Origin: Escherichia coli
GTDB taxonomy: Bacteria; Pseudomonadota; Gammaproteobacteria; Enterobacterales; Enterobacteriaceae
DNA: 52,994 bases
Assembly: GCF_003334765.1 (NCBI RefSeq)
Contig: NZ_QOWT01000028.1
Direction: 5' to 3' (one strand)
A program made the translations under genes and the position numbers. The notes beneath the pieces were generated by a model, which saw only the letters and a list, made by a program, of their open reading frames with translations, did no database searches and was not told the DNA's origin. This document shows positions 8,028 through 44,052 of this stretch, piece after piece; position 1 is the first letter of the stretch, and each line of letters begins with the position of its first letter.

Positions 8028-8050
8028 GTAGCCACATCAGGTATGTAACG

Positions 8051-8128
8051 CCTGATGCGACGCTGACGCGTCTTATCTGGCCTACACGCTGCGATTTTGT
8101 AGGCCGGATAAGCAAAGCGCATCCGGCA
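8051..8128. repeat. REP pair (BIME) in the araA-araD spacer
   Basis: gcctgatgcgacgctgacgcgtcttatctggcctac and inverted gtaggccggataagcaaagcgcatccggca. Confidence 0.75.
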
Positions 8129-8135
8129 TTGTTTT

Positions 8136-34115: not shown

Positions 34116-34126
34116 GTCCGTGCGCT

Positions 34127-34209
34127 GCCTGATGCGACGCTAATGCGTCTTATCAGGCCTACGGGAGCACGAATGTAGGCCGGATAAAGCGTTTACGCCG
34201 CATCCGGCA
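34127..34209. repeat. REP pair (BIME) in the caiA-caiB spacer
   Basis: gcctgatgcgacgctaatgcgtcttatcaggcctac and gtaggccggataaagcgtttacgccgcatccggca. Confidence 0.75.
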
Positions 34210-34225
34210 GTCATGCGCTACATAA

Positions 34226-35461
<1,236 letters not shown>

Positions 35462-37987: not shown

Positions 37988-38578
37988 GTGAGCTATTACG
38001 CCTTTGAGGGGTTAATTCCGGTGGTTCACCCGACGGCGTTTGTCCATCCCAGTGCCGTCTTGATTGGCGATGTGATTGTGGGAGCCGGTGTCTACATCGG
38101 CCCACTCGCCTCACTGCGTGGTGACTACGGGCGGTTGATCGTGCAAGCGGGAGCCAATATTCAGGATGGCTGCATTATGCATGGCTACTGCGACACTGAC
38201 ACCATCGTTGGGGAAAACGGCCATATCGGGCACGGAGCGATCCTGCATGGTTGTGTGATTGGTCGCGATGCATTGGTCGGGATGAACAGCGTGATTATGG
38301 ATGGCGCGGTCATTGGCGAAGAGAGCATTGTTGCCGCCATGAGCTTTGTCAAAGCAGGCTTTCACGGCGAGAAACGCCAGTTGTTGATGGGTACGCCAGC
38401 CCGCGCTGTACGCAGTGTTAGTGACGACGAGTTACACTGGAAACGGTTGAATACCAAAGAGTATCAGGATCTTGTCGGGCGCTGTCATGCATCGTTACAT
38501 GAAACGCAGCCGTTGAGGCAAATGGAGGAAAATCGCCCCCGTTTGCAGGGGACGACGGATGTGACGCCGAAACGGTGA
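37988..38578 (+). CDS. caiE: carnitine operon protein CaiE (hexapeptide-repeat / gamma-carbonic-anhydrase-like)
   Basis: 196-aa protein starting at GTG 37988 ([33 protein letters not shown]...); hexapeptide repeats. Confidence 0.85.
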
Positions 38579-38582
38579 TCTT

Positions 38583-38757
38583 GCCGGATGCGGCGTAAAC
38601 GCCTTATCCAACTCTGCTGGAGAGCAACCGTAGGCCGGATAAGATGCGCCAGCATCGCATCCGGCGATAGCTGTCGGATGCGGCATAAACGCCTTATCCA
38701 ACCCGGCTGGAGAGCAACCGTAAGCCGGATAAGATGCGCCAGCATCGCATCCGGCGA
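38583..38757. repeat. tandem duplication of an 85-bp REP-pair (BIME) unit, period about 90 bp
   Basis: Copy A 38583-38667 and copy B 38673-38757 are near-identical (gccggatgcggcgtaaacgccttatccaac...gccggataagatgcgccagcatcgcatccggcga) with a few substitutions. Confidence 0.8.
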
Positions 38758-38786
38758 CCAGGTCGCACGGTATCATCGAAATGACA

Positions 38787-39182
38787 TTAACGACGCATAC
38801 TCTTTGACAACATCATCTGCCACTTCTGCTCGCGGTTAAGTTCCGTGAGCGGAACGGCAGGAATACGCGGTGTCTTTCTTACGCCGACTAATTTTTCCCG
38901 ACTGTTATTGCGCAGGCGCGCGTAAATTTGCTCATCGATATCGACCACTTTAACCAGTCGCTGACACTGGCATCCCCGCCCTTCCAGCTTATTAGGGATC
39001 ATCTTAACTTCGCAGCTTATTTCTGTGACTTCCGACAGAATATAAGTCAGGGTATTAACCGCCTTGCTGTGTTCAATATCGAAATGAATAGAGATCTCTC
39101 TTGCTATCACCCACCGATTTTCAGCCATCATCCATTCGGCGATTAACAAGTAGAGTGGTTTTTCAACATATCCTTCACACAT
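38787..39182 (-). CDS. caiF: transcriptional activator of the cai/fix operons
   Basis: 131-aa protein MCEGYVEKPLYLLIAEWMMAENRWVIAREISIHFDIEHSKAVNTL...; start ATG 39182 (the track ORF is N-extended). Confidence 0.9.
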   Translation of the reverse strand: MCEGYVEKPLYLLIAEWMMAENRWVIAREISIHFDIEHSKAVNTLTYILSEVTEISCEVKMIPNKLEGRGCQCQRLVKVVDIDEQIYARLRNNSREKLVGVRKTPRIPAVPLTELNREQKWQMMLSKSMRR

Positions 39183-43878: not shown

Positions 43879-44052
43879 CAATGATGACGTAAATCAATGC
43901 AAATCTGCTTACCGACGAATTTCTGGCAAACGGCGGCATTCTGGAGATATGGGCGCTAAAAGTCAACTTAATGGCGGGATTTTTTATATTATTTTGTGGC
44001 TCATGCATGTTTTACATGCATTAAGCGACAAAAAGATCATATAACCTGTTCT

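Follow-up and report, generated by a model that had tools for sequence, protein, structure and literature searches.

A two-unit BIME-2 array between the convergent caiE and caiF genes of Escherichia coli, very probably one allele of a common copy-number polymorphism

In the DNA analyzed here, the caiE and caiF genes of Escherichia coli converge on a spacer that holds two tandem copies of a palindromic element, which raises the questions of what kind of element this is, how widespread the second copy is, how it arose, and whether the number of copies matters to the two flanking genes. We addressed these questions in a stretch of 52,994 nucleotides, about 53 kb, referred to here as the window. 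As judged by the coordinates of the open reading frames (ORFs), whose ends fall at 38578 and 38787, the spacer extends from position 38579 to 38786 and measures 208 bp, in agreement with the original prediction. Across positions 38300 to 39100, the order is the 3′ end of caiE on the plus strand (coding sequence at 37988 to 38578, with a TGA stop codon at 38576 to 38578), the 208-bp spacer, and the 3′ end of caiF on the minus strand (38787 to 39182, with its stop codon at 38787 to 38789). The gene names are backed by the RefSeq annotation of strain 300709, in which the region is 100% identical to the window; there, caiE has 591 nt and ends at the same position as the ORF of the window, and caiF has 396 nt. 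ORFs of 83 to 93 amino acids at 38485 to 38745 (minus strand), 38495 to 38776 (minus strand), and 38588 to 38839 (plus strand) were taken as spurious, because they pass through the REP palindromes and overlap caiE or caiF, and are probably artifacts of the palindromic repeat. A literature search for REPs in the caiE-caiF intergenic spacer returned nothing relevant.

A repeat search identified one direct-repeat family in the spacer, with two copies of 86 nt each at 38582 to 38667 and 38672 to 38757, which share 94% identity and have a start-to-start spacing of 90 bp. Tandem Repeats Finder, applied to the spacer, reported a period of 90, with 1.9 copies, 95% matches, and a score of 318. Together with the alignments, these searches confirmed the presence of a tandemly duplicated BIME unit between the two convergent genes, as had been proposed, and the boundaries proposed for the units (38583 to 38667 and 38673 to 38757) lie within 1 nt of those found here. 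In each unit, a linker of 17 nt separates a y-type REP from an inverted z2-type REP. In unit 1, the reference copy of the direct repeat, the y-type REP (GCCGGATGCGGCGTAAACGCCTTATCCAAC, at 38583 to 38612 on the plus strand, in iREP orientation, found by pattern search with 0 mismatches) starts 4 nt past the caiE stop codon. It is followed by the inner linker TCTGCTGGAGAGCAACC (38613 to 38629), read from the sequence, and by the z2-type REP GTAGGCCGGATAAGATGCGCCAGCATCGCATCCGGC (38630 to 38665, plus strand), which has GTAG at its 5′ end and aligns to the naRNA4 Z2 hairpin. This first unit is identical to the lone unit of strains that carry only one, such as O157:H7 H2495. The two units are joined as GA-TAGC-T, and the 4-nt linker TAGC (38668 to 38671) with its flanks, GCGATAGCTGTCGGATG (38663 to 38679), is diagnostic of the two-unit allele. 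Unit 2 differs from unit 1 by 5 substitutions, all of them in the first 52 nt of the unit. Its y-type REP (GTCGGATGCGGCATAAACGCCTTATCCAAC, at 38673 to 38702 on the plus strand) has 2 mismatches to that of unit 1, and its z2-type REP (38720 to 38755, plus strand) carries GTAA in place of GTAG and ends 31 nt short of the caiF stop codon.

The frequency of this arrangement was determined in 5,426 complete E. coli genomes, in all of which the cai locus was found. Alleles were counted with queries across diagnostic junctions, using E-value cutoffs that only a contiguous match could pass; query coverage does not separate one-unit from two-unit genomes, since it reaches 97 to 99% in the former too. 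The junction between unit 1 and unit 2 was detected in 765 of the 5,426 genomes (14.1%; 767 by a second query), and its carriers include BL21(DE3), with a spacer of likewise exactly 208 bp, E. coli B C2566, strain C122, and many ETEC and animal isolates. That the 208-bp allele might be an assembly error is contradicted by these 765 independent complete genomes. Counted within them is strain EH10-18-47 (locus L021, positions 131 to 428), the sole carrier (0.02%) of a three-unit allele with a spacer of 298 bp; the remaining 764 (14.1%) have the two-unit allele. The one-unit allele, with a spacer of 118 bp, is found in about 2,600 genomes (about 48%), for example, in O157:H7 and many extraintestinal strains; this figure was obtained by subtracting the 765 junction carriers and 134 further genomes, described below, from the 3,499 genomes with a full y REP, linker, and z2 REP, because divergent one-unit alleles overlap in score with two-unit alleles. 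About 33 genomes (about 0.6%) were left unclassified.

The 134 subtracted genomes (2.5%) have a spacer of 205 bp, as in E. coli CNREC_004-43 (locus L003, positions 500 to 704, homologous to 38579 to 38786 of the window), in which the z2 loop is split by approximately 120 bp corresponding to the left end of IS1397, that is, the IS end and the first ∼50 nt of the transposase gene. This allele appears to retain what is left of an IS1397 copy that had inserted into the BIME. IS1397, a member of the IS3 family, inserts in REP loops, and its link with BIMEs, established in the literature, is seen at the caiE-caiF spacer as well; the window allele differs in carrying no IS1397 sequence, the fragment belonging to a neighboring allele in the population.

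The original prediction also held that the spacer of K-12 has about 85 bp and consists of one unit. The length was correct: in MG1655 (NC_000913.3), caiF occupies 34300 to 34695 and caiE 34781 to 35371, leaving a spacer of 85 bp (34696 to 34780), for which the MG1655 record has no annotated repeat feature. Its content, however, is not that of one unit. The spacer reads TCTTGCCGGATGCG-ACCTGGTT-GCTGGATAAGATGCTACAACATCGCATCTGGC..., which corresponds to the head of a y REP (its first ∼10 nt), 8 unrelated nucleotides, and a degenerate z2 REP, and it falls 33 bp below the 118 bp of a true single-unit spacer. The K-12 spacer is a decayed remnant and not one intact unit. This remnant allele accounts for 1,894 genomes (34.9%), including those of DH5alpha, O104:H4, and O103:H2, among others, and is nearly invariant, with at least 99% identity in 1,878 of the 1,894 copies. 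Two copies are therefore not universal among reference strains, but they are common, with BL21(DE3) among the 765 carriers and a divergent Escherichia lineage, described below, sharing them; the structural reading originally proposed was right, and the rarity of the arrangement was overstated.

The CaiF protein does not follow these differences. The same CaiF accession, WP_000333125.1, is common to 12 of the 15 annotated strains, with all allele types represented, and the other accessions occur in three strains that all carry one unit, indicating that CaiF variation does not go along with copy number.

With regard to its class, the element fits the structural definition of a BIME-2, namely, y and z2 REPs, a short linker, tandem units, and a copy number that varies among strains. 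BIME-2 elements are tandem copies whose number at a locus differs among strains, and their linker is short, whereas BIME-1 elements have a long L motif with an IHF site (PMC3333891). In the window, the y 27-mer is present at 38583 and 38673, and REPs of z2 length lie at 38630 to 38665 and 38720 to 38755. Both hairpins align to Y and Z2 of the REP325/naRNA4 consensus, and the y REPs alternate with z2 and not with z1. The inner linkers measure 17 nt and the outer ones 4 to 7 nt, and the number of tandem copies ranges across the genomes as counted above (one, two, and three units in ∼2,600, 764, and 1, respectively). The array thus resembles BIME-2 in the alternation of y and z2 in opposite orientations, the short inner linker, the tandem y-z2 unit, and the extragenic location at gene 3′ ends. 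It differs in its feet, since both y REPs are degenerate, with CCAAC in place of CCGGC and without CTAC (they read CCAAC TCTG and CCAAC CCGG instead of CCGGC CTAC). The GTAG tetranucleotide, which BIME-2 elements conserve 5′ of the REP foot, is present in the z2 REP of unit 1 (38630 to 38633), is changed to GTAA in that of unit 2, and is absent from both y REPs, and this partial loss of GTAG marks the element as a partly decayed member of BIME-2. The two-unit spacer is therefore an instance of an already known kind of strain polymorphism and no new feature.

An independent typing of the hairpins came from Rfam. The y and z2 hairpins that lie tail to tail across the unit junction (38633 to 38703, minus strand) matched the naRNA4 family (RF02564) with 70.7 bits, against a gathering score of 59.5, in a full-length alignment. 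The match was also obtained in BL21(DE3) and EcPNK004, and the one-unit, K-12, and IS1397 alleles gave 34 bits at most or no match. Since naRNA4 is one Y + l + Z2 repeat of REP325 (PMC4550694), the match types the hairpins of the window as y and z2. The caiE-caiF array and REP325, which lies between yjdM and yjdN, share the same dyad of y, linker, and z2, although the linker of the caiE-caiF dyad is 5 to 6 nt shorter than that of the naRNA4 model. Moreover, REP325 comprises six repeat units inside a co-directional operon, whereas the caiE-caiF array has one to three units, two of them in the window, between convergent genes.

Elsewhere in the window, four other BIME-like REP pairs were observed at approximately 8050 to 8135, 15083 to 15162, 34125 to 34210 (minus strand), and 47687 to 47773, and they represent the normal REP landscape of E. 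coli. The last of these contains, at 47687, the 27-mer of the unit 1 y REP (pattern search), together with a near-identical z2 REP and the canonical feet CCGGCCTAC and GTAGGCCGG. The z2/y REP pair at 15083 to 15162 (plus strand) gave a second match to RF02564 over the threshold, with 75.8 bits, which indicates that the family model detects ordinary BIME dyads. A match to the Rfam ES003 small RNA (RF02750) at 43879 to 43931 (minus strand), with 87.4 bits against a gathering score of 37, is unrelated to the BIME array.

The origin of the second unit can be approached through the haplotypes that carry it. In two-unit alleles of E. coli, unit 1 and the outer flanks agree with the local one-unit haplotype; thus, unit 1 of the window is the O157:H7 unit, and unit 1 of EcPNK004 is that of strain 6409. 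At the same time, the junction reads GCGATAGCTGTCGGATG in all two-unit E. coli alleles compared, and all of them carry the substitutions that mark unit 2. The occurrence of one junction and one set of unit 2 markers on several haplotypes points to a single origin of the two-unit allele, which homologous recombination would then have moved into several backgrounds.

Three informative outgroups came from a scan in which each species was represented by one genome. The divergent lineage SCPM-O-B-8794, named E. coli but a separate GTDB species representative, has a caiE 3′ end 96.8% identical to that of the window, two units, and a related junction (GCGATCACTGTCGGATG / GATCACTG); its unit 1 y REP retains the canonical CTAC. 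Two units in this lineage suggest that the two-unit state is old or was transferred. Escherichia whittamii has one unit, and its caiE stop codon and left flank, AAGCGATAGCTGTCGGATG, hold the same 17-mer, GCGATAGCTGTCGGATG, as the junction of the window. Escherichia sp. MOD1-EC7003 has a truncated form like that of K-12. We also observed that the caiE stop codon differs by lineage, being TGA in E. coli, TAA in SCPM-O-B-8794 and MOD1-EC7003, and TAG in E. whittamii, so that BIME rearrangements seem to have reshaped the stop codon itself. In the outgroup genus Pseudocitrobacter (L015 and L016), the caiE-caiF spacer has only a simple hairpin, GCCGGATGG-N7-CCATCCGGC, directly past the caiE stop codon; its arms and flanks (TGATNTTGCCGGATG ... 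CATCCGGCGA) agree with the outermost arms of the E. coli BIME unit, and it could be either an ancestral terminator hairpin or a collapsed BIME. Overall, we consider it very probable that what lies between the convergent genes caiE and caiF is a two-unit BIME-2 array, representing one allele of a common and old copy-number polymorphism.

A plain tandem duplication of 90 bp in the present-day E. coli haplotype does not account for the junction, as the TAGC linker fits neither flank; it does fit the caiE end of E. whittamii. A donor locus for the divergent left half of unit 2 was sought elsewhere in the genome, and only generic matches to the REP body, of ∼32 nt, were found. A short repeat, GCGA, occurs at the caiE end and again at the z2 end. 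The first step from one to two units, or its reversal, may have proceeded through this microhomology of only 4 nt, as either a 90-bp duplication or the opposite deletion, the outgroups being few, and homologous recombination would later have carried the two-unit allele between backgrounds. As for the three-unit allele, the left part of its middle unit shows the unit 2 markers and the right part the unit 1 marker (GTAGG), and such a chimera would be expected if units had misaligned and undergone unequal homologous exchange or slippage.

Alternatively, the REP-associated tyrosine transposase (TnpAREP/RAYT) might be the source of the extra unit, by cleaving at REP or linker sites and transferring the strand. 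In vitro, TnpAREP is able to cleave and recombine BIMEs and to append a REP together with its linker, and a published model describes how one BIME unit could be gained (PMC3333891). Unit 2 is no fresh perfect copy of unit 1, as its 5 substitutions and the TAGC linker show, which is in keeping with such a route. However, binding and cleavage by TnpAREP require GTAG (PMC3333891), and with both y REPs lacking the motif and the z2 REP of unit 2 reading GTAA, amplification driven by the transposase is the less likely route at present. In addition, homology-driven unequal exchange explains the chimeric middle unit exactly, and the junction agrees with a variant of the caiE end with GCGA microhomology. 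We therefore regard the transposase as an unlikely source of the second unit and favor microhomology and homologous recombination.

To consider what the array might do, the RNA structure of the spacer was evaluated. The plus-strand RNA (caiE sense) folds with −89.9 kcal/mol (z score of −4.19 against shuffled controls), and the minus-strand RNA (caiF sense), the more stable of the two, with −98.5 kcal/mol (z score of −4.41). As read from the sequence, the degenerate y foot produces G·U wobbles on the caiF-sense strand and C·A mismatches on the other. A consensus scan found no intrinsic terminator, that is, a GC-rich hairpin with a U-tract, on either strand of 38579 to 38786. The palindromic structure shared by two convergent 3′ ends is reminiscent of a bidirectional terminator, but the array has no U-tract on either side and hence is not a canonical intrinsic one. 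REPs act as partial Rho-dependent attenuators and mRNA stabilizers, REP325 gives rise to a ladder of hairpin-ended transcripts, and 78 REPs lie inside previously identified bidirectional terminators; about 30% of the convergent gene pairs of E. coli carry a REP, and such pairs are more highly expressed (bioRxiv 10.64898/2026.03.23.713779). Extrapolating from this literature, the hairpins on both RNA strands would serve as barriers to 3′-to-5′ exonucleases for the cai operon and caiF transcripts and as partial, Rho-assisted attenuators of both, and the array would keep antisense read-through in check between the cai operon and caiF, the gene of its activator. By analogy, the array is likely to act as a structured barrier, without a terminator, at the 3′ ends of both transcripts, plausibly with the same local attenuator or stabilizer action at 3′ ends as REP325/naRNA4.

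Whether a second unit changes this role depends on what it adds. That copy number may affect termination or mRNA stability, as originally suggested, accords with what is generally reported for REPs. The REP nearest each stop codon is unchanged between one- and two-unit alleles, which also share the first hairpin 4 nt past the caiE stop, and the second unit contributes two internal hairpins. As Liang, Rudd, and Deutscher reportedly found in 2015, REPs within ∼15 nt of a stop codon can reduce translation through ribosome stalling. Since the stop-proximal REPs are left as they were by the duplication, the extra unit would have a small effect on expression at most, and its effect is probably small.

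It might nevertheless be proposed that copy number is a selected regulatory dial, with two units shielding caiF better than one unit does against antisense transcripts that run through from the cai operon, or better stabilizing one of the mRNAs, so that lineages differ in the expression of the carnitine pathway. The folding energy roughly doubles with the second unit (from −47.0 and −51.3 kcal/mol for one unit to −89.9 and −98.5 kcal/mol for two), the two-unit allele persists at 14% and in several backgrounds, and where a REP separates convergent genes, expression of both tends to be higher, with the REP325 ladder as a further precedent (bioRxiv 10.64898/2026.03.23.713779). Against selection speak the identical hairpins nearest each stop codon and the coexistence of three very different alleles, including the decayed remnant in 35% of genomes, with an unchanged CaiF, which looks neutral; moreover, the effect depends on the presence of a REP and not on fine differences (bioRxiv 10.64898/2026.03.23.713779). 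On balance, a selected dial seems unlikely, and an effect of the extra unit that is small at most is the reading we retain.

A further proposal would make the array a binding and cleavage site for DNA gyrase, as a BIME-2, that relieves positive supercoils between the convergent units, with more units recruiting more gyrase. Positive supercoils build up between convergent genes, where the array sits, and BIME-2 elements are said, from work by Espeli and Boccard in 1997, to be gyrase targets in vivo. The y REPs are degenerate, however, and 35% of strains have only a remnant without an intact y/z2 pair, and we hold a gyrase function at this spacer to be quite improbable. Finally, that the junction gives rise to a working small RNA of the naRNA4 kind, associated with the nucleoid and binding HU, is very hard to credit, even though the RF02564 match exceeds the gathering score and is restricted to two-unit alleles, because the family in effect models a y and z2 REP pair, as the second match at 15083 to 15162 in the window illustrates, no promoter was found for a junction RNA, and REP325/naRNA4 itself is reported not to compact the nucleoid and to be a local 3′ untranslated region element (bioRxiv 10.64898/2026.03.23.713779).

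For the locus itself, a two-unit BIME-2 array belonging to a common copy-number polymorphism is of little significance beyond annotation. It does mean that the K-12 reference carries a decayed form of the spacer and not the typical one. The remnant, one-, two-, and three-unit alleles and the IS1397-fragment allele make up a natural series with an unchanged CaiF, which could serve as a test bed for the relation between REP copy number and convergent-gene expression. It is conceivable, as a long shot, that spacer copy number is a heritable, protein-neutral regulator of carnitine metabolism, in which the one-unit, two-unit, and remnant alleles set the stability of caiF mRNA and the antisense read-through from caiTABCDE; if this were true, lineages such as B/BL21 and K-12 would differ in cai induction by the spacer alone.
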